A stretch of 64,000 bases of DNA, taken from the UHGV virus genome UHGV-1493261; one strand, 5' to 3'. This document shows positions 955 through 42,819 of this stretch, piece by piece. The stretch is from a virus. The translations under genes and the position numbers were made by a program. The notes beneath the pieces are model-generated. The model had not been told where the DNA came from, made no database searches, and was given only the letters and a program-made list of their open reading frames with translations. The number at the start of each line of letters is the position of its first letter. Positions within the stretch are counted from its first letter, which is position 1.

Positions 955-3669
955 ATGTCAAAGCTAAGTTTCCTCCAGTTCATGCAGGAAAGAGATCAGT
1001 TGGACGAAGCGTTCAACTCCGCTCCGTATGAGCTGACTATGGGTAAGAAGAACGCAGGCGATGTGTTCTTCACCTTCGTCGACGAAGATGAAAAGGAATA
1101 CCGTATTCAGTTCTATACCCCTCAGGGGCTGGGCAAGAGCGTTCGTCAGGTTTTCATCGGTCAGAAGCGCGGCTCCGTCTATCCTGACGCCATCGCTCGC
1201 TTCAAGAACCCAATGCGCGTTATCGCTTCCATGATCGAAGCGACCAAACAATTCATGGCGACTCCTCTGGGCAAGACCATCGATGGCTTTGCTGTCAACT
1301 TCTCGAAGAAAGCGCTGGATCGCGGTATGACCCTAATTCCTAAGATCATCCGCCAGTCCGGCCTGAAACAAAAACTGAATGTCATGGACCTGACCTACGC
1401 GCCTGTCCCTGACCGTGGTTATGTGTGGCTGGTCCGCAAGGGTAAAGATCCGGCTCAGGTATTCGACGGTCCGAAGATGCAGGGTATCACCTGGGATGAT
1501 CCAGACAAGGTCGGCGACGTTCCGGTTCAGAATAATACTTCGGATGTGGGAGTTGGGGCTGGTTCTTCTGAAATCGAAGTCAACCGCGAGTGGTACAACA
1601 GCTCGGACACTGGTCTGGAGTTGAAGAGCGGGCGAGACCCGATTCGTGGAAACTACGTCCGCCTGATAAGCGGTTCGAAAGAAGTAGCCGCATTCTATGG
1701 TTATGATTTTGACAAATATCCAGACGGGACTGAGGTATCTTGGAATATGAAGCGCGGCTTCACCAACCAAGACTTGGTCGGTGCGTCCATGACCAAACAG
1801 AAGAAAGGCATGTACGATCAGTACACTTTCAAGAAAGGTGCTCAGATAATTCTGGTGGTGGACGTTGACACCAGCAATGACACCAGCAATGACACCAGCA
1901 ATGACAACGGTTGGAAACTCACAAAAGCCGATGCCACTCAACCAATGTTAGTATGGGCGGGGAAAGAAAAAGGTCGCTTAGTCACGGCAAATATCGCTCC
2001 CCACTACAATGAGCCGGGCGTGTATGTTGGCGCATACATGAATGAGAAACCTGTGCGTGGGCAAAGTGCTGATTTCATTGCTCGTCAGTTGAAATTACCA
2101 CAAGTCCCTATCAGTATCCTGAATGATTTCACCACGGCGTCCACAAAATTTTGGAAAGGTTCTCAGCAGAAGTCCGCGCCAGCTGACTCTAACACCACAA
2201 TCGGGGCAACCAGTATCGATCAATTGCGTGACAGCGGTTTCATCGCTCGTGTTCTGGGTATCATTGATGCCAACATTGACCAGAAAGCAAGCCATCTCCC
2301 AGGGGAAAGCATTAAGAAGATCGGACAGGCACGTTATCAAACTAAAGGTGGTCTGGTGATCATCGTCAGCTTCGATTCAGTCGATGGCAAGAATCTGACC
2401 TACAACGTGTTCTCTGAAATCGAAACTCAGCCTGGTGTCATCTCTGGCGATGCTCGTCTGGTGGCAAACAAAATCATGGAAACGATCACACACGTGGCCA
2501 AACATCAGTACACTGGCAAATGGGAAATTAGCGCAGTGCCAACAAGCGCTCCATACCCTATCAAAGCCATTCGCCGTTCTCGGGGCTGGGGTTATGTGGA
2601 AACCGCAAACTGGACTCTGAAAGTGTCCGACGCTGTCCTGAATCGTGTGAAGCCAGGGAACACTGCTCTGCTGGAACTCATCAAAGAACCTCCTCGTGGC
2701 AAGCACCTGCTGGTAATCATCCCAGAGAAGGGCGACAAGACCCTGATGCTGAAAGATCGTATTAGCGGGGCCATCTATGGTTCTATCGACCTGAATGCCC
2801 AGGGTGCTGATATGGTCAACTCTGGAACCCTGAAGATGCCACGCAACGCCATGGTGTTTGGCGAGACTGTCAACGGTATGTCTATCACTTGGTCTGGAAT
2901 CAATTTCCCGAAAACTGGGAAGTATGATGGTGCTGTATTGACCACGAATGTGACCTATTACTACGACAAAGGAAAAGTCGCGTTCACACCGATGATCTCC
3001 CAGAAAGGGCGGCTGCTGAACAATCCGAAGACATATGAACTTCCTTTGAATAAAGACATTGTTCAGGCATTGATCGATGAAATTTCTTCTAAAATGGAAA
3101 TGATATCTCGGAATATGCAAACTCTGAAAAGCACGTCGCATAATCCGAAACAAGTATTTTTGGACGACATTTCTGTTGACAACAACGGTTCAGTCCTTTG
3201 GCGCGGGTACGACATGGCGGATCGCCGCACTAATGATTTTATGTTGGGTATCCTGTCCAAAGAAACCGAGAGACTGGAGAAAGAGTCGAGTACTGCGAAG
3301 AAGACTGGTGCCGACCTTGCGGCATACGCCGACTCCATCCGCGACAACGCACCAAAAGGTCGCGACCTGGATTGGCAGATCTATGCAAGCCGTGATGGTC
3401 AGACTCTGAACGTGGACTGGGATATCACCTTCCGCCGCAACACAACTGAAGGGGCATATCGCGAGTTCAAAGCTCAGATTGACCGCGCCAACCAGTACCT
3501 GCAGACTCTGTACCGGGATGCGAAGTCCAAGGGTTACAACCCGACTGAACCAAACCTGATGACTCTGGCTAGCGCCCAGCAGTCTGACCAGTGGTCACAA
3601 GACAACGGGGAAAGCGCATACAGCGAGTACGAGCAGTCCCTGGGTGGAAACATGCAGATCAAGATCTGA
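955..3669 (+). CDS. large hypothetical protein (904 aa) with internal DTSN x3 repeat
   Basis: Long uninterrupted ORF with SD CAGGAG; no family motif recognised. Confidence 0.6.
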   Translation: MSKLSFLQFMQERDQLDEAFNSAPYELTMGKKNAGDVFFTFVDEDEKEYRIQFYTPQGLGKSVRQVFIGQKRGSVYPDAIARFKNPMRVIASMIEATKQFMATPLGKTIDGFAVNFSKKALDRGMTLIPKIIRQSGLKQKLNVMDLTYAPVPDRGYVWLVRKGKDPAQVFDGPKMQGITWDDPDKVGDVPVQNNTSDVGVGAGSSEIEVNREWYNSSDTGLELKSGRDPIRGNYVRLISGSKEVAAFYGYDFDKYPDGTEVSWNMKRGFTNQDLVGASMTKQKKGMYDQYTFKKGAQIILVVDVDTSNDTSNDTSNDNGWKLTKADATQPMLVWAGKEKGRLVTANIAPHYNEPGVYVGAYMNEKPVRGQSADFIARQLKLPQVPISILNDFTTASTKFWKGSQQKSAPADSNTTIGATSIDQLRDSGFIARVLGIIDANIDQKASHLPGESIKKIGQARYQTKGGLVIIVSFDSVDGKNLTYNVFSEIETQPGVISGDARLVANKIMETITHVAKHQYTGKWEISAVPTSAPYPIKAIRRSRGWGYVETANWTLKVSDAVLNRVKPGNTALLELIKEPPRGKHLLVIIPEKGDKTLMLKDRISGAIYGSIDLNAQGADMVNSGTLKMPRNAMVFGETVNGMSITWSGINFPKTGKYDGAVLTTNVTYYYDKGKVAFTPMISQKGRLLNNPKTYELPLNKDIVQALIDEISSKMEMISRNMQTLKSTSHNPKQVFLDDISVDNNGSVLWRGYDMADRRTNDFMLGILSKETERLEKESSTAKKTGADLAAYADSIRDNAPKGRDLDWQIYASRDGQTLNVDWDITFRRNTTEGAYREFKAQIDRANQYLQTLYRDAKSKGYNPTEPNLMTLASAQQSDQWSQDNGESAYSEYEQSLGGNMQIKI
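1867..1902 (+). repeat. perfect 12-bp tandem repeat x3 (GACACCAGCAAT), in frame, encoding DTSN-DTSN-DTSN
   Basis: Three identical adjacent copies read directly. Confidence 0.9.
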
Positions 3670-3677
3670 TCATCGAA

Positions 3678-3693
3678 AGCCCCTTCGGGGGCT
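3678..3693 (+). terminator. terminator hairpin AGCCCC-ttcg-GGGGCT
   Basis: Perfect 6-bp GC-rich stem immediately after the stop at 3669. Confidence 0.55.
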
Positions 3694-3701
3694 TATAAAT
3701 A
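3694..3701 (+). promoter_or_regulatory. T4-type late promoter TATAAATA
   Basis: Exact TATAAATA octamer 25 nt upstream of the ATG at 3726. Confidence 0.6.
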
Positions 3702-3725
3702 ACTGAAATCCCCGAGGAGATTAAG

Positions 3726-4031
3726 ATGAAACCGTTTATCGAATATTTTAAAGAACAAGCCGCTAAACCTCAGACCCATGCTGGTGTCCAGGGTAAGACC
3801 GTATCCATCACCAAGCAAGCTGACGGCACCCAGTGGTGTTCCGGCGCTACCGTGACCCAGATCACTCCTGACAATCAGGCGGATGTCTACAACCTGGAGT
3901 TAACCAACGGCAACACCATCAAGGTGAAGCTGACCCCAGACCAGACTCACGGTATCTCCCAAGGTCAGGAAGTCGTTGCTGTCCATGACGGTTTCGAATT
4001 CTTCTTTGGCAAGCCTGCCGACAAAGACTAA
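3726..4031 (+). CDS. hypothetical late protein (101 aa)
   Basis: ORF with SD GAGGAG; preceded by a late promoter. Confidence 0.55.
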   Translation: MKPFIEYFKEQAAKPQTHAGVQGKTVSITKQADGTQWCSGATVTQITPDNQADVYNLELTNGNTIKVKLTPDQTHGISQGQEVVAVHDGFEFFFGKPADKD

Positions 4032-4062
4032 GTGAAACCATCAAGATGACTCTTGATCATAA

Positions 4063-4091
4063 TCCCCCTAAATACAGGGGGATTTCTTTTT
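4063..4091 (+). terminator. terminator hairpin TCCCCC-taaataca-GGGGGA + T-rich tail; loop carries a TAAATA late-promoter-like core (4067-4074)
   Basis: Inverted repeat plus TTTCTTTTT. Confidence 0.5.
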
Positions 4092-4105
4092 CTGAGGACA
4101 ACATC

Positions 4106-4459
4106 ATGGTCAATGCGAGTATTTTCATCAACCGTGGACTGCTTGCTATAGCCCACTCTCATGCCTTGCACTTCGTTACAACGTCCTATGCCAAGCACAA
4201 GGCACTCGGGGAGTTCTACGGGGATCTAGAGGACTTGCTGGACACGTTTACCGAAGCATACATCGGTGCAGGTGGTCAGTATGTTCCATCATTCGAGAAT
4301 ATCAAATTGTACAACCCAGACCCTATCTCCTATATTAACAGTGTGGTGATAGACGTCGATGGCATCTACAAGCAGTGTGACTCCCACCTTCAGAGCACTC
4401 TTGACGATATCAAGACACTGTGCTATCAGACGATCTACAAACTGAAGCAGCTGTCGTAA
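4106..4459 (+). CDS. hypothetical protein (117 aa)
   Basis: ATG at 4106 with GAGG 9 nt upstream; the track start at 4046 lies inside the terminator hairpin and is unlikely. Confidence 0.5.
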   Translation: MVNASIFINRGLLAIAHSHALHFVTTSYAKHKALGEFYGDLEDLLDTFTEAYIGAGGQYVPSFENIKLYNPDPISYINSVVIDVDGIYKQCDSHLQSTLDDIKTLCYQTIYKLKQLS

Positions 4460-4516
4460 GTCAATACGAAATAAAGGCATATAATTTTGCTCATTATTCA
4501 CCAAAAGGAAAGGACA

Positions 4517-5128
4517 ATGAGCAAAATCTTTATCCCGTCACACCGCGAAGGATGTGAAATCGCGGCCAACTACCTGCGCGGTCGCATGAACTGCGGCGCT
4601 GTCTTCATCGAGCCAAATTCGTTTGACAACAAAGAATCACCTGATGCCATCGGGTTCCGTTCCGGCGGTTGCTCTATCCTGATGGAAGTGAAGGTGTCTC
4701 GCTCTGATTTCCTTACCGACAAGAAGAAGCCTCATCGCATGGATCCGACGACGGGCATGGGCGCATACCGCTTTTATGTCTGCCCTCAGGACGTGATCAG
4801 GGTTGAAGACCTACCACCGAAGTGGGGGCTGTTCTACTTCACACCCCGCAAGTCCCTGATGCCAGTTCATGTGCCAGACATGCGGTACTCTTTATTGTCA
4901 TCACCAGATCATTATCAGAAGTACCTTGATGAACAGATCAAGAGAGGAAGAACCGTTACTCGGCATATGCGCAGCTACATGGAACTCCTCGAAGGCTTCG
5001 CCCACTTTGAGCGCAACACTGCCGGGGAGCAGAATATCCTGTATGGGGCTTGGCGCCAACTGTGTATAGCTCAAAGTCGTGGTGTAGACTATACTGTGAC
5101 CGAAGTGTTCCAGAGGCCGAAGATCTAA
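4517..5128 (+). CDS. putative PD-(D/E)xK-type nuclease
   Basis: Motif sPDaigf...ilmEvKvS; ATG at 4517 with SD AAAGGAAAGGA; stop overlaps the next start (TAATG). Confidence 0.4.
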   Translation: MSKIFIPSHREGCEIAANYLRGRMNCGAVFIEPNSFDNKESPDAIGFRSGGCSILMEVKVSRSDFLTDKKKPHRMDPTTGMGAYRFYVCPQDVIRVEDLPPKWGLFYFTPRKSLMPVHVPDMRYSLLSSPDHYQKYLDEQIKRGRTVTRHMRSYMELLEGFAHFERNTAGEQNILYGAWRQLCIAQSRGVDYTVTEVFQRPKI

Positions 5129-36762: not shown

Positions 36763-37020
36763 ATGGACGAGCTATTCGCATTGGTGATTGCATTAACGTT
36801 CTTACTGTCCTTGATTATCAGCTCGCTTGTGTTGTTGCTGGTGTGGATAGCTGTTCCCGAGATCAATAACCACAAGGCGCTCGTTGTCGTGATTATCCTA
36901 GGTCTGAGTGCTTCCCTTACTCTTCACTATTCCAAACAGGAGTATAATCCTAACAAATATTACAAGACATTAGCGGACAAGTATCATGAGTTTAAGAATG
37001 AAAGAGCTTCCGGTAAATGA
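36763..37020 (+). CDS. small membrane protein
   Basis: Hydrophobic N-terminal half. Confidence 0.4.
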   Translation: MDELFALVIALTFLLSLIISSLVLLLVWIAVPEINNHKALVVVIILGLSASLTLHYSKQEYNPNKYYKTLADKYHEFKNERASGK

Positions 37021-37240
37021 CAAGAAGTACATGTACAAGGTTCTGCTGAGCCTCGGGGTGTCACAATCTGGGCTGGCTCGTTTATTGGATTGTTCTAATG
37101 TTGTGAACTACTGGGCGAAGGGATATCGTGTTGTCCCCCGCTCATTCCGTCGCTTCATCCTGGTGTTACAGTTCATCAAGAAGAAAGGGCTGATGGAAGA
37201 GTTATTGCAATTTATTAAAGAAGAGGAACGCAAATGCTAA
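36986..37240 (+). CDS. small helix-turn-helix protein (start uncertain, 36986 or 36998)
   Basis: HTH-like LGVSQSGLARLLDCSNVVNYWAKG. Confidence 0.4.
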   Translation: MSLRMKELPVNDKKYMYKVLLSLGVSQSGLARLLDCSNVVNYWAKGYRVVPRSFRRFILVLQFIKKKGLMEELLQFIKEEERKC

Positions 37241-37893
37241 CAGAGTGGCAGAAGATGGAGTTCGAGCGGGCGTTCAACGTTTACTGTGTCTTCATGGCGA
37301 TCAAGCTGCACTTCACCACTAAGGACTTCGATTACAGCTTGTATGGACCTATGAATTACAAGTTCGAGACGTTCTTGGCGAAGGAGGCCGTGTGCAAACA
37401 GTTTGCTCGCCTTGCCCGTCGGTTCGAGTCGTCACAGGGTGAAGTGGTAGAGAACTACATCATTGCCAACTTCATCAAATCACCCAAGACATGGGTGACG
37501 ACATTGCTTACACGCCAGGCTCAGGCCAATTATGATGAATACCGTAAGCTGTACGAGAACTTCACATATAACTTCCTTGAGGAGTTCGAGCGGGAGATGA
37601 TCCCTGCCATAAGGGAGCGCAACTGCACCTTCATTGAGTACATCAAGGGGACGGGTACAGGTCATCCACCGTTGCTAACAGACATCATCATCAAGAAGTT
37701 CCCGATTTGGTTCCTTGTCGGTCTGAACAAGATCGTTGGTTTCATTCATCTATACGATACGATTCTGCGTGATGACATCTACTGGAACTCAGAGGCGTTC
37801 TTGCTCAGGAAGACGAATGCTGTGGTTCCGGATGAGGATACCACATATTCAAAACAGAGACTCCGTGAGCTAATACAAGCCCACGGAATCTGA
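37234..37893 (+). CDS. hypothetical protein (219 aa)
   Basis: ORF with SD GAGGAA. Confidence 0.5.
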   Translation: MLTEWQKMEFERAFNVYCVFMAIKLHFTTKDFDYSLYGPMNYKFETFLAKEAVCKQFARLARRFESSQGEVVENYIIANFIKSPKTWVTTLLTRQAQANYDEYRKLYENFTYNFLEEFEREMIPAIRERNCTFIEYIKGTGTGHPPLLTDIIIKKFPIWFLVGLNKIVGFIHLYDTILRDDIYWNSEAFLLRKTNAVVPDEDTTYSKQRLRELIQAHGI

Positions 37894-39888
37894 TTACCAT
37901 TCCCACAGGATGCGGGAATTATCTGTTTTGTTCTCAGGCTCAAGATATGAGCTGTTGAAGTTATTGGTCGTGTTGATCCTCTTAGAAGCATCCACATTCT
38001 GCTGTACTGGCATCACGACGCTGGCTGGAGGCGGTGAATAGCCGCCTTGTACTTGCTCGATATTAGACAGCGCCCTCCCTTGTGATGGCATGGCCCCACC
38101 CAGAGTACCACCCCCGATAGAACCATACGCAGCTTTCAGCTGAGAGGTGCGGTCATTAGCCATATTCTTGTGATCTGAAGACACACCAGAAGGTATCGGA
38201 GTCAGCGTCTGTGGATCGTTGTTCGGTTTTGGATCGTTGTTCGGTTTTGGTGACGTCTGTGGATCGATGTTCGGTTGTGGTGACGTCTGTGGCTGCGAGG
38301 TCTCTGCCACATTAGGAGACGGATTCTCATCAGTGTCAATCAGCATAGACTGGCGAGCCTCATCCATCTTCTGCTTCGCAGCCTGTCCACCCAGAGCGTC
38401 AGGGATGATGCTGACGAACTTGTCAACGATATCGAACATCGCATTGGTGATTGTGTTCAGCATGTTGAAGAAAGGTTTCTTCACATTTTCGGCAAATCCC
38501 TTCTTGATTTCGTCAATAACCTTGTTGGCCACACCCATGCCCTCGTCGATCACACTACTGATACCCCCTGTGATCCAGTCTACCAGCTTCATCAATTCCG
38601 ACTGAAGGTTGTCTGCCAGCTTGCCAGGGATATCCGTAAGAGACGTGTCTCTCCCGATCCCTGCAAACAAGTCGTTGCTAATCCAGTCGATAATACCATT
38701 CAGCCAACGAGCGGGAGCCTCGGTGATCATGAGGGTGTATTTGCGCAGGGTTTCTCCCGCCTCGGTATCAAAGCCAAAGATCTTGGACACCCAGTCAAAT
38801 ATATCACCAAATCCACCAACCAGTTCTGATATCCCCGCCCGTACTCGGTCAACTATCGTGACAGCACCTTTACCCAGGATCTCCTTCGCATCAATGAAGC
38901 CTTTACCGAAGTCCCAGATCATAGACAGGAGAGCCAGTGGACCGACTTTCAGGAACTTGAACACCTTCCCAAATGGGCCCAGAAGTTTGGTGATACCTTC
39001 TCCCAGCTTGGAGAACATGCCGAGGAAAGTCCCGACAACACCACCGATGATCTTGAACGGCTTGAGCAAGAAGCCCTTCAGTGCATTCAGGCCAAGCATG
39101 GCCGCCACAGCAGCCCCGATACCGGAGGAATCGTCTTTCTGGTCATCGTCTTTGGGTATAACAGAACCCGCCTGAGGATGACCACCCGTTTCTTTGTCGG
39201 TTTCCCCACGGCGCATCTCGTCCTTCTCACGCCACTTCTGGTCTTCATCAAAGATGCGTGTCAACACTCCAACGATATGACCGCCCGTGCGTCCAATCTT
39301 GTTTTCAATGCTAGACAAGCGAGTAAGGGTGTCATCGGAGTTCTTTTTCAGTTCAGCAACATCGTCACGAACCTCGATCATCACTCCGTCGATCATGTTC
39401 AAGAATGATCCCACGCGGACCAGAGACACACTCTGCTCGTCCATGCGCTTGAGGGTGTCATCATTGGCAGACTTCAGCTGGTCTGAGATCAGGTTAAGAT
39501 ACTCCAGGGACGTGTCATCTGTTGGCATGCGGGTGATCTCACCGAGGCGGTCAATCTTGCCTGCGATATTCTCCAGTTCCCGATTGCCTTCGTTACCCAC
39601 ATCGACAGTATCCTTCATCCATACGCTGAAGTCGCGGGTGAAGATCGGAGACATGCGAGCGAATCCCATGACGATCTCATTGACTGTCGGGATACGGATT
39701 TCAAATGGCTTGGACTCGGCCTTGGTGCCCTGTTTAGTGGCAGATTCCAGCTTGGCCAGATTCTTGTTCATCCGGTCAAGCTGTCTGTTGGTTTCATTCT
39801 GAGCGCGGAGTTGTTTGCGCTGCATCATCTCCGCCTTGATCTTGTCTAGAACTTTGACAACATCATTGTTCGTTGCTTCCTGTGCCAT
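37894..39888 (-). CDS. large virion-associated protein (664 aa): coiled-coil N-terminus, Gly-rich hydrophobic segment, Pro-rich repeat C-terminus; possibly tape-measure/hub-like
   Basis: Composition only; lies at the end of a minus-strand structural block. Confidence 0.4.
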   Translation of the reverse strand: MAQEATNNDVVKVLDKIKAEMMQRKQLRAQNETNRQLDRMNKNLAKLESATKQGTKAESKPFEIRIPTVNEIVMGFARMSPIFTRDFSVWMKDTVDVGNEGNRELENIAGKIDRLGEITRMPTDDTSLEYLNLISDQLKSANDDTLKRMDEQSVSLVRVGSFLNMIDGVMIEVRDDVAELKKNSDDTLTRLSSIENKIGRTGGHIVGVLTRIFDEDQKWREKDEMRRGETDKETGGHPQAGSVIPKDDDQKDDSSGIGAAVAAMLGLNALKGFLLKPFKIIGGVVGTFLGMFSKLGEGITKLLGPFGKVFKFLKVGPLALLSMIWDFGKGFIDAKEILGKGAVTIVDRVRAGISELVGGFGDIFDWVSKIFGFDTEAGETLRKYTLMITEAPARWLNGIIDWISNDLFAGIGRDTSLTDIPGKLADNLQSELMKLVDWITGGISSVIDEGMGVANKVIDEIKKGFAENVKKPFFNMLNTITNAMFDIVDKFVSIIPDALGGQAAKQKMDEARQSMLIDTDENPSPNVAETSQPQTSPQPNIDPQTSPKPNNDPKPNNDPQTLTPIPSGVSSDHKNMANDRTSQLKAAYGSIGGGTLGGAMPSQGRALSNIEQVQGGYSPPPASVVMPVQQNVDASKRINTTNNFNSSYLEPENKTDNSRILWEW
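38205..38292 (-). repeat. compound tandem repeat (18-bp unit x2, then 30-bp unit x about 1.5), encoding repeated DPQTSP-KPNND segments
   Basis: GGATCGTTGTTCGGTTTT x2 at 38213-38248; GGTGACGTCTGTGG recurring at 38249 and 38279. Confidence 0.8.
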
Positions 39889-39899
39889 GGGTCACCTCG

Positions 39900-41288
39900 T
39901 TAAACCTTCTGTGCTTGGCCTTTCTCAATCGCCTGAGGAGTAGTGGTGGAAGCAGTTGTCTGATTGGTCTGAGGTGGAAGCACCTGCTCCAGCAAACTGT
40001 CCTTGGCAATCTCAGCGATGCACTGATAATCTTTGGTCAGGCGGGAAATCTTGTGACGCACTTTGGTCACGATATAGTGGCCTGTCGATAGCTTACTTAA
40101 CTCTGCCAGGTTTTCGTTCTTCTTAGGACGGTTGGACTGGTCTTCGACGTAGAACACCTGACCGACGTTCAGGCGGTTATCACCAACGAGCAACACGCGC
40201 ATCACAGTGCTGGCAAGACTGAAGTTGATAACACGACTAGCATAATCAATCTGCTCCGCTCCATCCGGCTGGGCTTCAATGTAACGGACGTTCTGACGAT
40301 TGAATTCATCTGAGAACATCGGGAACGGATCAAGGTGAGCCGTCTCTGCAAACCACTCAGTATAGATGCGCTGTGTTGGGGTGACTGTCTTGGTCTCAAA
40401 GTCGTAGACGCGCTCGTTCACCGCCAGGACATCGCGGTAGTTTGCCATGAACTGGTCACGCGCCAGCTTCTTCTCTGCCTTGATGATCGTGCGCATAAAG
40501 CGCTCAGAGTTGAAGTTGTTATCCTGCATGAGCGGCGCGTCCTGAGGATCACGGAACAACTTGTTCTGTTGAGCTAGTTCCTGCTTCTCTTCTGCTGTCA
40601 ATGACTGGCTACCCTGGTTGAACAACGTCGTCAGGCTCTTGAAGTGATAGCCATTGAAGTCTTCATAGAACACGAATGGCATGAACAATTCGTCATAAGA
40701 ACGGCTCGCCATATAATCAATAGATCGCAGCACAGGCCAGAGAGGGGTGGCGAACCGCTCTTGAATTCCATATGACGGGTCGATGTCTTCGAACTTGGTG
40801 CGCGACTCCAGCTGATTGAAGATTGTCTTCGCCATGTCAGAATACGAACCGTCAAGACCGAGGGAGCATCGGATCATGCTGTCCTTATAGGCATCGGTGG
40901 TCACCATGTGCAACCAGAATGCTTTCTTGGACGAGCTGTTGGACTCATCAGCTACGCGCCCAACACGCGCTACGCGCAGGGAGAGAGTGGTGTAATCCGA
41001 GGCCGCCGGACTCTTGAATGACACCACAACTTCTTCGCCACCCAAGATAGGCATTGTGTCAAGAATGTCCCACCCCTCTTTTATCAAGACATTGGCTGTA
41101 AGCGATGGAGATGACTTCCCTTCAAGACCCAGATCCTGGAAGACGTTGAACTCCTCAAACAACGCCGTCAGGTCATATGGCGTTGGTGATCCGCCCTGGG
41201 GTGTATGAGGGAGTATCGCCATATACTTCAGGTCAAATGTTGTTGACGGTGTTACAATACCGTCTTGGGTCTCTCTGTTTTCGATCAT
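39900..41288 (-). CDS. hypothetical structural protein (462 aa), candidate baseplate hub component
   Basis: Position in the structural block only. Confidence 0.35.
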   Translation of the reverse strand: MIENRETQDGIVTPSTTFDLKYMAILPHTPQGGSPTPYDLTALFEEFNVFQDLGLEGKSSPSLTANVLIKEGWDILDTMPILGGEEVVVSFKSPAASDYTTLSLRVARVGRVADESNSSSKKAFWLHMVTTDAYKDSMIRCSLGLDGSYSDMAKTIFNQLESRTKFEDIDPSYGIQERFATPLWPVLRSIDYMASRSYDELFMPFVFYEDFNGYHFKSLTTLFNQGSQSLTAEEKQELAQQNKLFRDPQDAPLMQDNNFNSERFMRTIIKAEKKLARDQFMANYRDVLAVNERVYDFETKTVTPTQRIYTEWFAETAHLDPFPMFSDEFNRQNVRYIEAQPDGAEQIDYASRVINFSLASTVMRVLLVGDNRLNVGQVFYVEDQSNRPKKNENLAELSKLSTGHYIVTKVRHKISRLTKDYQCIAEIAKDSLLEQVLPPQTNQTTASTTTPQAIEKGQAQKV

Positions 41289-41839
41289 TTCGCCAACTCC
41301 TGCTCCAGCTGATTGACAAACGAAGACACATAATCTGGGTCGAGTACTTGGATGTTCCGTTTGGCTTCATTCTTACTGATTGCATCATCATGATATGAAA
41401 CTGCCGTCAGACCATAGTTAGCAATTATGGACGGCTCATCCAGGTCTAGGTTATATGCAAATTTGATAGCACGGGCGTCGGTCACGTTGTTGAACTGGTC
41501 GACATAATAGGCTGTATCCCACATACCATCGATGCCGTAATCTGCAGTCAGTTCTTCAATAATACGGCGTTCCGGTTTCGGCCAGTCCTTATTGATGTCC
41601 ATGATGCCGTTTATCAGACAAGGTATCCAAAACAACTCGAAGGATCCGTAAACGCGTTCTGCGAAAGACCTTGGGGTTTCCCCCTCTTGAATCGTATACG
41701 GCAGGAGAAGCCCTTCGATGTCCTTAATTTTCTGTAAGATCATCACCCGGCGCGTTAAGTTCTGTAACAGCACCTGATCATTCTCTTGGACATCTTGCAA
41801 TTGATGCCAAACAAGTGGAAACTTCTCAAAATATTTCAT
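41285..41839 (-). CDS. hypothetical protein (184 aa)
   Basis: ORF coupled within the block. Confidence 0.4.
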   Translation of the reverse strand: MKYFEKFPLVWHQLQDVQENDQVLLQNLTRRVMILQKIKDIEGLLLPYTIQEGETPRSFAERVYGSFELFWIPCLINGIMDINKDWPKPERRIIEELTADYGIDGMWDTAYYVDQFNNVTDARAIKFAYNLDLDEPSIIANYGLTAVSYHDDAISKNEAKRNIQVLDPDYVSSFVNQLEQELAK

Positions 41840-41850
41840 GGCATCCTCTC

Positions 41851-42819
41851 TTAGAAGCTATCGCCTTCGGTTTCAAAGCGCCCTTTATGCAGAGGCTCCA
41901 GTTCGATGAAGGTCATGTCAACCTGCGTGGACACGATACCATCATCTTTGTGAACCGCGTATGAACTGTCCGGCGTCTCGTTGACGAACATGTTGGAAAG
42001 TACACAAGTGGAGATGCGGTGCAGCCACTGGTTACGCTCCCCATTGACCATGAACGTAATGTCGAATGTTGAAGGATGCAAGTAAAACGCGCTGGAATTC
42101 TTGTTGTACTTGTACTCTGGGTACATGTGCATCTTGAACATGCGGATGATCTCACGGACCATTTTGGCTTCCTTCTGAGATCGCGGCGTGAATTTGAATG
42201 TAAACGGAATCTCACGGTTGCGTACCCCCTGGAAGATCATCTCCACATACGGGTTGGTCATCGTACCAGTGAACAACTCAAGGGTGTCATGAGCGTTGAT
42301 GGTAGGCATGAACGGGATAGCCTCCGATGCAGACTGAATGGCCTTGGTCGCTGCAAATCGACCCATTTCCTTCCCGACGTTGAGCGCATCACCCAGTTTA
42401 AACTGAGTCATGTCTTGGGCGGCGCGGGAAAGGAACTGTGCCCCCATACCAGCCAGCCCCAGCTCGCTACCGTTCCAGCCAACGCCATAGTTGGTTGTAA
42501 TGGACTCGGGCATACAAAGTACGATAGACTCGTTTGAACGAACGTGACGCGCCCATGCATATTTGGTGATGGAACCAGACTTGGACCCATAGACCACAGG
42601 AGTATTCCCCAGAGGGTTCTGTATTGGGTTCTCGATAGTCTGAGTAGCCGTGTTGCCATAAGATGAACCGGAGATGCGGTTGATGTTGAATAGGACATAG
42701 TGTCCCAAGGTCTTACCCCCAGTGACGTCTAGGGGATAAGACAATTGCTTCTGAGCCTGGGACAATCCCTTCGTGTTCAGAACCTTGATCTTATCGATTG
42801 TCTTTTTGAAGTCGGACAT
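41851..42819 (-). CDS. hypothetical structural protein (322 aa), possibly baseplate/tube-related
   Basis: Preceded by a late-promoter-like CCTAAATA at 42854-42861. Confidence 0.35.
   Translation of the reverse strand: MSDFKKTIDKIKVLNTKGLSQAQKQLSYPLDVTGGKTLGHYVLFNINRISGSSYGNTATQTIENPIQNPLGNTPVVYGSKSGSITKYAWARHVRSNESIVLCMPESITTNYGVGWNGSELGLAGMGAQFLSRAAQDMTQFKLGDALNVGKEMGRFAATKAIQSASEAIPFMPTINAHDTLELFTGTMTNPYVEMIFQGVRNREIPFTFKFTPRSQKEAKMVREIIRMFKMHMYPEYKYNKNSSAFYLHPSTFDITFMVNGERNQWLHRISTCVLSNMFVNETPDSSYAVHKDDGIVSTQVDMTFIELEPLHKGRFETEGDSF

Follow-up and report, generated by a model that had tools for sequence, protein, structure and literature searches.

The locus described here lies in a 64,000-nucleotide stretch of viral DNA (the window) from an Agtrevirus-like phage of the family Ackermannviridae. 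A compound tandem repeat is embedded in frame at residues 533–561 of a 664-aa protein, about 100 residues before its C-terminus, and the protein is a putative tail tape measure protein (TMP; Table 1). Its gene sits directly downstream of genes for gp48-, gp53-, and gp27-like proteins, all on one strand, and the same order recurs in the annotations of phages Ag3, ChubbyThor, and LIMEstone1; in the latter two, the gp27-like neighbour is named a baseplate hub subunit. An antisense open reading frame (38219–38605, plus strand) was set aside as a shadow ORF of the gene that holds the repeats.

Table 1. Genes, protein regions, and repeat units at the locus (positions in the window)
Feature	Position	Strand	Basis and remarks
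Putative TMP gene	37894..39888	-	664 aa; ORF list, PHROG matches, orthologue annotations
Gp27-like baseplate hub protein	39900..41288	-	Upstream neighbour; phrog_350 tail protein, E=2e-98
Gp53-like baseplate wedge gene	41285-41839	-	Same operon direction; phrog_232, E=3e-58
Gp48-like baseplate tail-tube cap gene	41851-42819	-	Same operon direction; phrog_230, E=4e-113
N-terminal long-helix (coiled-coil-like) region, aa 6-233	39190..39873	-	AF2 helices 6-52, 69-79, 86-117, 127-233; low confidence
Gly-rich hydrophobic segment, aa 255-330, putatively membrane-inserting	38899..39126	-	Kyte-Doolittle; analogy with T4 gp29 TM segment
Conserved helical region, aa 331-515	38344..38898	-	AF2 helices 334-515; position matches T4 gp29 helical bundle domain
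Pro/Gln/Asn/Thr-rich linker, aa 516-577, predicted coil	38158..38343	-	AF2, composition, family alignment
Conserved C-terminal region, aa 578-664	37897..38157	-	Invariant residues across 41 representatives
Compound tandem repeat array	38205..38292	-	TRF, unit dissection, shuffles; encodes PQTSPQPNID-PQTSPKPNND-PKPNND-PQT
Unit A, CCACAGACGTCACCACAACCGAACATCGAT	38292..38263	-	30 bp; PQTSPQPNID, aa 533-542
Unit B, CCACAGACGTCACCAAAACCGAACAACGAT	38262..38233	-	30 bp; PQTSPKPNND, aa 543-552
Unit C, CCAAAACCGAACAACGAT	38232..38215	-	18 bp; PKPNND, aa 553-558
10-nt partial copy, CCACAGACGC	38214..38205	-	Encodes PQT end of array
48-bp insertion (16 codons, PQTSPKPNNDPKPNND)	38215..38262	-	Alignments to relatives; exact gap placement arbitrary within repeat

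The protein is approximately 97.7% identical to its orthologues in the E. coli phages fGh-Ecl02 and AV101. Full-length orthologues with 33–98% identity are found among the putative TMPs of the Ackermannviridae (phrog_3799; LIMEstone1 ORF027, ChubbyThor gp74, and Bue1 AVO22870), with lengths of 648–649 aa in Agtrevirus and Limestonevirus and 646 aa in the sampled Kuttervirus. In a PHROG scan confined to the neighbouring genes, the strong match of the 664-aa protein was to phrog_3799 (E=0), a family labelled 'unknown function', and a weak, partial match was to phrog_4200, 'tail length tape measure protein' (E=2e-5, 24 bits; residues 267–498 against profile positions 273–480 of 732). Orthologues are annotated as putative TMPs in ChubbyThor and LIMEstone1, that of LIMEstone1 (ORF027) carries the annotation 'confirmed structural protein', and in the Vi01-like phage Sajous1 the putative TMP orthologue was found by virion mass spectrometry, with 52 spectra (PMC10892097). 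The LIMEstone1 and Sajous1 orthologues bear out an earlier, sequence-only reading of this DNA, which had spoken of a virion-type protein and did not name a TMP. Searches of the 664-aa protein against the PDB with phmmer and profiles gave no match, and Pfam and NCBIfam, together with Pfam searches on all 41 homologues, returned no meaningful curated family. We infer that the protein serves as a TMP and, by analogy with T4 gp29, would be anchored to the baseplate hub.

An AF2 model computed with a 41-sequence alignment (mean pLDDT 43, pTM 0.20) was used for secondary structure only, and was left out of fold comparison because low-confidence models yield meaningless matches. In this low-confidence model the protein is helical over residues 6–515; the coiled-coil N-terminus proposed in the sequence-only reading reappears as long helices, at low confidence only, whereas the Gly-rich hydrophobic segment is reproduced by hydropathy, with 19-residue Kyte-Doolittle peaks of 1.73 (residues 257–275), 1.44 (274–292), and 1.33 (306–327). 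Among the 41 representatives of the family comparison, conservation is highest in the helical region at residues 331–515 (0.76–0.87), and four residues of the C-terminal region (N609, L649, N653, and W662) are invariant in 41/41; the C-terminal region would dock on the baseplate hub, if the analogy with T4 gp29 holds. Between the all-helical body and this conserved region lies the linker, with 13 Pro in 56 aa, which is predicted to be non-helical and has the lowest pLDDT of the model (27–32), although the coil assignment is weak evidence given the poor quality of the model. Conservation in the family alignment is also at its lowest in the linker (0.11–0.39), in line with the flexible, linker-like segment read from the sequence. 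Residues 517–576 give a sub-threshold, composition-type match to the ClfB adhesin (E=0.11).

Within the linker, TRF detects an 18-bp array at 38212–38250 (2.2 copies, 100% matches, score 78) and a 30-bp array at 38230–38292 (2.1 copies, 93% matches, score 112). Outside the repeat site, the window holds one further array with a score of at least 50; when the window was shuffled 60 times under a first-order Markov model, a score of at least 78 was reached in 0/60, and arrays scoring at least 50 averaged 0.12 per shuffle. Two nucleotides separate unit B from unit A, and unit C is identical to the final 18 nt of unit B. Both TRF and the shuffles show that the 18-bp and 30-bp tandem units previously noticed here are real, and unit dissection and the ORF list agree that they encode Pro/Asp-rich segments of the DPQTSP/KPNND type.

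The TMP gene measures 1995 nt here, as against 1947 nt in 22 close records, and a 301-nt query from the window covers just 253 nt in about 44 (at least 25) Agtrevirus/Limestonevirus records. Besides these approximately 44 records, the relatives examined comprise 19 loci from IMG/VR, one Logan contig, and, from a cluster of 115 members, the 15 that are listed; every one of the relatives has one unit followed by the 10-nt partial copy (1.3 copies), whereas the window has two 30-bp units and an extra 18 bp. Thus, the insertion of 48 bp (16 aa) is private to the window. It occurs in 0/19 of the IMG/VR loci and is absent from the Logan contig, while the 15 listed cluster members are all 648 aa long. 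The exact 664-aa protein was not found in a collection of 15 billion protein sequences, and KPNND is absent from all homologues in the family alignment. Two junction patterns searched against IMG/VR gave 0 viral matches, and the junction-pattern matches that were obtained (11 metagenome, 7 genome) show no similarity to the TMP gene. P0021 (509 aa), which at 98% identity was a candidate for a closer relative, proved to be a fragment caused by a frameshift, and its contig is without the insertion. The repeat is a recent in-frame tandem duplication of 48 bp (16 aa), unique to this genome among the sampled relatives.

Length variation had been anticipated from the sequence, and the region is indeed not invariant across relatives: the window has gained 16 aa, another homologue (P0016) has lost 1 aa through a one-codon deletion in the same repeat unit, and the linker spans 22–78 aa in the family. 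Given that the single-copy state is essentially fixed in close relatives, the insertion is a rare private variant rather than one side of a frequently flipping polymorphism.

The linker is variable and little constrained. With its standard deviation of 11 aa, it is the most length-variable block across the 41 representatives, and its length correlates with that of the whole protein (r=0.81); the block at residues 465–512 has zero length variation. Compared with the nearest relative, PC3, 8 of 11 nonsynonymous differences fall inside the linker (binomial estimate for the clustering, ~3e-8), and pN/pS is 1.31 in the linker vs 0.06 in the rest of the protein. In deeper comparisons, linker pN/pS is not elevated (0.24 vs 0.15–0.22 elsewhere). 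In Erwinia phage Bue1 the linker reaches 78 aa in a TMP of 696 aa, and the distant homologues P0047 and P0049 have EP/KP-rich linkers. In Bue1 and Klebsiella phages, where the linker is longer, it was found to contain no DNA tandem repeats, so that slippage is documented for the present event and the one-codon deletion only. The linkers of Ag3 and LIMEstone1 are nearly alike in sequence.

We consider it likely that the array arose recently, in this lineage only, by tandem duplication in two in-frame steps within a disordered linker of an Agtrevirus-like TMP, that it persists because length and sequence can change there without harm, and that its effect is small. The ancestral state would have been one 30-bp unit followed by the 10-nt partial copy (CCACARACGC), a potential substrate for slipped-strand mispairing that is present in the aligned relatives. 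Slippage would have duplicated the 30 bp; in the new copy, two point mutations would then have replaced Q by K and I by N; and a duplication of 18 bp within the changed copy would have brought the net gain to 48 bp and 16 aa. This three-step history, with its two slippage steps, is the most parsimonious one. The array fits a replication-slippage length polymorphism, being head-to-tail and in frame, differing in copy number among relatives, and having a pre-existing substrate. Import from another phage was rejected, the inserted units being 2 nt from the resident unit and KPNND occurring in no homologue. A phase-variable or contingency locus was likewise rejected, because the 18- and 30-bp units, present in about 2 copies each, are multiples of 3 and keep the frame; the sampled relatives are all single-copy.

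In the assembled tail, the linker would join the helical body (N-terminal helices, hydrophobic segment, and helical region) to the C-terminal region, which would anchor the TMP to the baseplate hub as in T4 gp29. The additional 16 residues would add ~2.4 nm if helical or ~5 nm if extended, at most about one tail-tube ring, and their effect is likely small. The insertion is presumably near-neutral. The new 30-bp copy carries two substitutions vs ~0.4 expected from the gene-wide divergence of 1.4%, and the linker pN/pS of about 1.3 could reflect diversifying selection rather than neutrality.

In none of the collections searched does the variant occur outside this sequence, as would be the case if the extra 48 bp were a sequencing or assembly artefact, a mis-assembly or polymerase error in a short repeat. 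We regard such an error as very improbable. The insertion is exactly in frame and has a multi-step structure, with a 30-bp copy bearing two substitutions that both recur in the further 18-bp copy; assemblers usually collapse short repeats, rarely expand them, and never make diverged copies; the 18–30-bp repeats are much shorter than the read length; and the flanking linker carries further lineage-specific substitutions. It is just as hard to credit that the protein is another internal baseplate, hub, or ejection protein, with a linker unrelated to tail length. The lack of detectable homology to T4 gp29 or to a solved TMP, of a curated family, and of a function for the main match, phrog_3799, would agree with this, as would the arithmetic of the ruler, 648 aa at 1.5 Å giving 97 nm, below the ~114 nm reported for the tails of relatives (113–118 nm for Vi01/LIMEstone1-type phages). 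However, the T4 residue-to-tail-length ratio is similar, the gene occupies the genomic position of gp29 beside the gp27-, gp53-, and gp48-like genes, the orthologues are virion proteins, the architecture of long helices, hydrophobic segment, and conserved C-terminus is typical of TMPs, and there is the partial match to the TMP family phrog_4200.

A different question is whether the expansion was adaptive, the Pro-rich linker being a functional spacer in which the 16 added residues and the amino acid changes were selected for a one-ring change of the tail or a match to the host envelope. The spacer might then be part of the length ruler or, alternatively, a TonB-like extended rod that lets the ejected C-terminus cross the periplasm. 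The excess of nonsynonymous changes in the linker relative to the nearest relative, the fact that linker length accounts for most of the protein-length variation in the family, and the EP/KP-rich linkers of P0047 and P0049 would be in keeping with such tuning. So would the tail of Bue1, the longest in a published table (126 nm), and the behaviour of T4, in which the C-terminal parts of the TMP leave first and the TMP makes a membrane conduit. Nevertheless, we consider adaptive tuning unlikely. Across genera, reported tail lengths, which are EM values from different laboratories and too noisy for such a comparison, do not follow TMP length: in the Serratia phages phiMAM1 and 3M, TMPs of ~630–635 aa (from tblastn spans) go with tails of 120–123 nm, and the tails of Vi01 (646 aa, as in sampled Kuttervirus orthologues) and LIMEstone1 (649 aa) measure 115 and 114 nm, respectively. 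Moreover, the raised pN/pS disappears in deeper comparisons, the Ag3 and LIMEstone1 linkers are almost identical, the variant is known from one genome only, and in T4 the TMP can be compressed within the tube, so that a few nanometers of slack need not alter the number of rings. The most specific form of the idea is quite improbable, namely that the linker is polyproline-II-like, that 16 more residues (~5 nm) provide one more tube and sheath ring or a longer C-terminal reach into the periplasm, and that duplication and clustered changes reflect selection in this E. coli-phage lineage. If such selection did operate, its driver could be a change in the host envelope or a host or prophage factor targeting the ejected TMP, like T4 Imm.

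The insertion, which we ascribe to slippage in a tolerant linker, gives this genome a private allele of a structural gene that is already annotated in phages. The mutational mechanism is well known and so is this kind of TMP variation; the overall importance of the insertion is modest and its effect probably little. At the same time, it marks the one insertion-tolerant place in the Ackermannviridae TMP, variable over 22–78 aa between neighbouring blocks with zero length variation, which may help those who wish to engineer tags or length variants into Agtrevirus, Kuttervirus, and Limestonevirus phages. Together with its 98%-identical relatives, the phage forms a natural near-isogenic pair in which to ask whether a non-helical linker counts in the ruler of a contractile tail.

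Compared with known systems, the closest parallel is T4 gp29. The gene adjoins that for the gp27-like protein, with gp48 and gp53 homologues nearby (the T4 order is 27-28-29-48-54), the sizes are comparable (590 aa for gp29 vs 648–664 aa in the Ackermannviridae), and the parts follow in the same order, i.e., N-terminal coiled coils, a stretch of Pro and acidic residues, a hydrophobic TM segment (residues 207–246 in gp29; bioRxiv 10.64898/2026.03.06.709160), a helical domain, a low-complexity stretch, and a conserved C-terminal piece, the last 20 aa of which bind gp27 in T4 (PMC12929629). In this order, the counterpart of the linker is the Pro/Lys/Gln-rich stretch at ~519–570 of gp29, which, unlike the Ackermannviridae linker, differs little in length among nine Straboviridae. 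Comparison with hhalign gave a probability of 0.2% for the single sequence vs T4 gp29 and 1.3% for the 41-sequence profile vs 9 gp29 homologues, and short collinear motif resemblances near the C-terminus (E 0.03–0.05, single pairwise comparison) are not significant. Given that no gp29 homology is detectable, the protein is a positional and architectural analogue rather than a member of the gp29 family.

A more distant likeness is to TonB, the (EP)n(KP)n region of which is a Pro-rich spacer. Both are rich in Pro with K, E, N, and D, both would link two functional parts through an extended, non-globular spacer, and EP/KP motifs occur in the linkers of P0047 and P0049, although there is no homology. 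One may speculate from this likeness that the linker spans the periplasm. Among TMPs themselves, length mutants are classically those of lambda gpH and TP901-1. The window allele alone among the Ackermannviridae putative TMPs has the 16-aa PQTSPKPNNDPKPNND insertion. According to a survey, myovirus TMPs are mostly without tandem repeats (PMC13585406). The present repeat resides close to the C-terminus, in a Pro-rich linker that is not helical, rather than in the helical ruler, so that proportional lengthening of the tail is not assured. Part of the length variation of TMPs is recognised to come from tandem repeats and slippage (PMC13585406), and what the present repeat shares with those surveyed is an in-frame tandem duplication by slippage that alters the length of the TMP and leaves the frame intact.

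TRF resolved the compound tandem repeat that the sequence-only reading had placed at 38205-38292 into overlapping 18-bp and 30-bp arrays, lying, as that reading also held, within a 664-aa ORF. Only one array scoring at least 50 was found elsewhere in the 64-kb window, and none of 60 Markov shuffles reached a score of 78. Units A and B differ by 2 nucleotides, and both changes are also present in unit C.

Positions of the features discussed, in the window unless another sequence is named; repeat units are written in the coding direction
Feature	Position	Strand	Description
18-bp array	38212-38250		18-bp unit x2.2, 100% matches, TRF score 78
30-bp array	38230-38292		30-bp unit x2.1, 93% matches, TRF score 112
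Repeat-bearing ORF	37894-39888	minus	664 aa, putative tail tape measure protein (TMP)
Unit A	aa 533-542	minus	CCACAGACGTCACCACAACCGAACATCGAT = PQTSPQPNID
Unit B	aa 543-552	minus	CCACAGACGTCACCAAAACCGAACAACGAT = PQTSPKPNND
Unit C	aa 553-558	minus	CCAAAACCGAACAACGAT = PKPNND
Partial copy	after unit C	minus	CCACAGACGC = PQT...
Place lacking the homing endonuclease gene	36986-37240 / 37234-37893
Homing endonuclease gene, compared loci L001 and L002	1647-2342 in each		696 nt
Split TMP gene, Logan contig L052 (DRR569829)	3001-4948		509-aa and 134-aa ORFs
gp29, T4 sequence L024	13879-15648		compared part aa ~519-565
12-bp array	1866-1906		TGACACCAGCAA x3.4, perfect, encodes (DTSN)3
ORF with 12-bp array	955-3669	plus	904 aa, unknown function (phrog_3867)

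The repeat site holds 48 bp missing from every relative examined. The gene measures 1995 nt in the window versus 1947 nt in all 22 close phage records, and in ~44 records of Agtrevirus, Limestonevirus and allied phages, a 301-nt query around the repeat covers just 253 nt or splits. The insertion was present in none of 19 IMG/VR loci, nor in a Logan contig of a close relative (L052), and exact-pattern scans for the novel junctions returned nothing related from IMG/VR, JGI metagenomes or GTDB genomes. The exact window protein was not found in a 15-billion-sequence collection, and in a 115-member 90% cluster all 15 members listed are 648 aa long. The relatives read QPQT(P/S)(P/A)QPNID-PQTLTP at this site, where a 10-nt partial copy (CCACARACGC) trails a single 30-bp unit, and a unit with a partial copy is a classic substrate for slipped-strand mispairing. 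Because the two changes that set unit B apart from unit A recur in unit C, the most parsimonious history would be duplication of the 30-bp unit, two substitutions in the duplicated copy and then duplication of 18 bp. We infer that the mechanism was replication slippage, to which changes in the length of tandem repeats and homorepeats of TMPs are generally ascribed (PMC13585406). The allele is new, in a gene that is known and already annotated, and slippage is a known mechanism.

This in-frame, lineage-specific duplication is real and falls in the least constrained and most length-plastic part of the protein. Conserved anchors were used to divide 41 representatives of the cluster (identities 33-98%, lengths 617-734 aa) into blocks. 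The one corresponding to window residues 512-566 spanned 22-78 residues (sd 11.0), the widest variation of all blocks, and its length showed the strongest correlation with that of the whole protein (r = 0.81); the adjoining block, 465-512, showed zero length variation. Column conservation is lowest in the Pro-rich linker (0.11-0.39), and in the close relative P0016 a single Pro codon of unit A is deleted. The AlphaFold2 model built on the 41-sequence alignment was poor (mean pLDDT 43), and its secondary structure alone was used: residues 6-515 are modelled as helical, residues 516-577 have no regular structure (lowest confidence, 27-32), and two short helices and a C-terminal tail follow. The suggestion of a flexible linker of variable length is thus upheld. 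Long linkers of Erwinia phage Bue1 and Klebsiella phages were searched for DNA repeats and yielded none, which argues that the window event is recent and that older expansions have decayed or had another origin. In IMG/VR loci of Klebsiella/Serratia Ackermannviridae, two TMP alleles of 661 aa (L009/L010/L021) and 647 aa (L011/L023) differ by a 14-aa indel at the same linker position, with no DNA tandem repeat detectable at that site.

The window contains a second perfect tandem repeat, of a 12-bp unit, around which 400 nt look mosaic. The top match there is Klebsiella phage K751 (96%), versus 92% for the E. coli phages that are otherwise closest to the window. The length matched differs between phages (397, 400, 406 or 636 nt), suggesting another indel-prone spot.

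The window derives from an Agtrevirus-like myophage of the Ackermannviridae (Aglimvirinae). Over a stretch of 22 kb, its identity is ~97.7% with Enterobacter phage fGh-Ecl02 and with E. coli phages AV101, A221 and PC3, and ~91-92% with the group of MK-13, SKML-39 and ChubbyThor. The repeat-bearing gene hits phrog_3799, a family of unknown function, at E=0 and has a partial hit, at E=2e-5, to phrog_4200, 'tail length tape measure protein'; no match was found in Pfam, NCBIfam or PDB sequences. Its ChubbyThor and LIMEstone1 orthologues are annotated 'putative tail length tape measure protein'. The assignment to a virion-type protein agrees with the LIMEstone1 record, which adds 'confirmed structural protein', and with mass spectrometry of virions of the Vi01-like phage Sajous1, in which the orthologue was seen (PMC10892097). 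Genes for gp48-like, gp53-like and gp27-like baseplate proteins precede the gene on the same strand, and it adjoins a convergent gp59 helicase-loader gene. In PC3, Ag3 and ChubbyThor, the small phrog_4600 gene is separated from the gp59 gene by a homing endonuclease gene (MobE-like / HNH); the endonuclease gene is absent from the window, LIMEstone1 and L052. In L052, a 98%-identical relative, a 1-nt insertion near codon 500 splits the TMP gene, which may reflect either misassembly or a pseudogene.

That the protein is not a TMP is very improbable: sequence homology does not counter this reading, but synteny, architecture and presence in virions speak against it. It is just as improbable that the extra 48 bp are an assembly artefact, since the insertion is multi-step and in-frame. 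Import from elsewhere is likewise disfavoured by this structure and by the occurrence of KPNND in no homologue. Adaptive tuning, with the linker either contributing to the ruler or spanning the periplasm as a spacer, is unlikely, though somewhat less so. In its favour is a local excess of amino-acid change: the gene as a whole shows 11 nonsynonymous differences from PC3, the nearest relative, and 8 of them fall in aa 519-575, where pN/pS is 1.31 versus 0.06 elsewhere. Nothing speaks for it directly, and in deeper comparisons (LIMEstone1 and L008) the linker is unexceptional (0.24 versus 0.15-0.22).

The expansion probably has little effect. The 16 added residues amount to ~2.4 nm as a helix or ~5 nm if extended, and the rise per tube ring is ~4 nm. 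The T4 TMP is also compressible in the virion (PMC12929629). Published tail lengths, compared across family members as a probe of the ruler idea, do not track TMP length (PMC10892097, Table 2), though EM values from different laboratories are noisy: 120-123 nm in Serratia phages (TMP ~630-635 aa, inferred from tblastn spans), 115 nm in Vi01 (646 aa, the length in Kuttervirus orthologues sampled), 114 nm in LIMEstone1 (649 aa) and 126 nm in Bue1 (696 aa). The repeat points to a place in the Ackermannviridae TMP that tolerates insertions, and it is chiefly of use as a natural, near-isogenic test of whether the Pro-rich linker counts in contractile-tail length measurement.

The protein would act as a tail-length ruler with its C-terminus anchored to the hub, by analogy with T4 gp29, which in situ has its last 20 residues bound to the gp27 hub and its N-terminus facing the DNA (PMC12929629). 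The gp29 map, proposed recently, runs from a coiled coil (1-120) through a Pro-rich stretch to a TM segment (207-246), a helical bundle (273-518) and a C-terminal loop (571-590) (bioRxiv 10.64898/2026.03.06.709160). The order of parts in the window protein, including a Gly-rich hydrophobic stretch at 257-327 (hydropathy), parallels this map, and a Pro/Lys/Gln-rich low-complexity stretch sits between the gp29 bundle and loop. Near their C-termini the two proteins share short collinear resemblances, at window TMP aa 534-544 (QPNIDPQTSPK versus QPNAKPETSAK in gp29) and 627-644 (PVQQNVDASKRINTTNN versus PVQQASPSINNTNN), at E 0.03-0.05 in one pairwise BLASTP and unsupported by profile comparison; these could reflect compositional convergence or a faint remnant of shared ancestry. 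Because homology to gp29 is undetectable in sequence, and even profile against profile, we do not assign the protein to the gp29 sequence family and treat it as a positional and architectural analogue, gene 29 occupying the equivalent genomic place in the T4 cluster 27-28-29-48-54.
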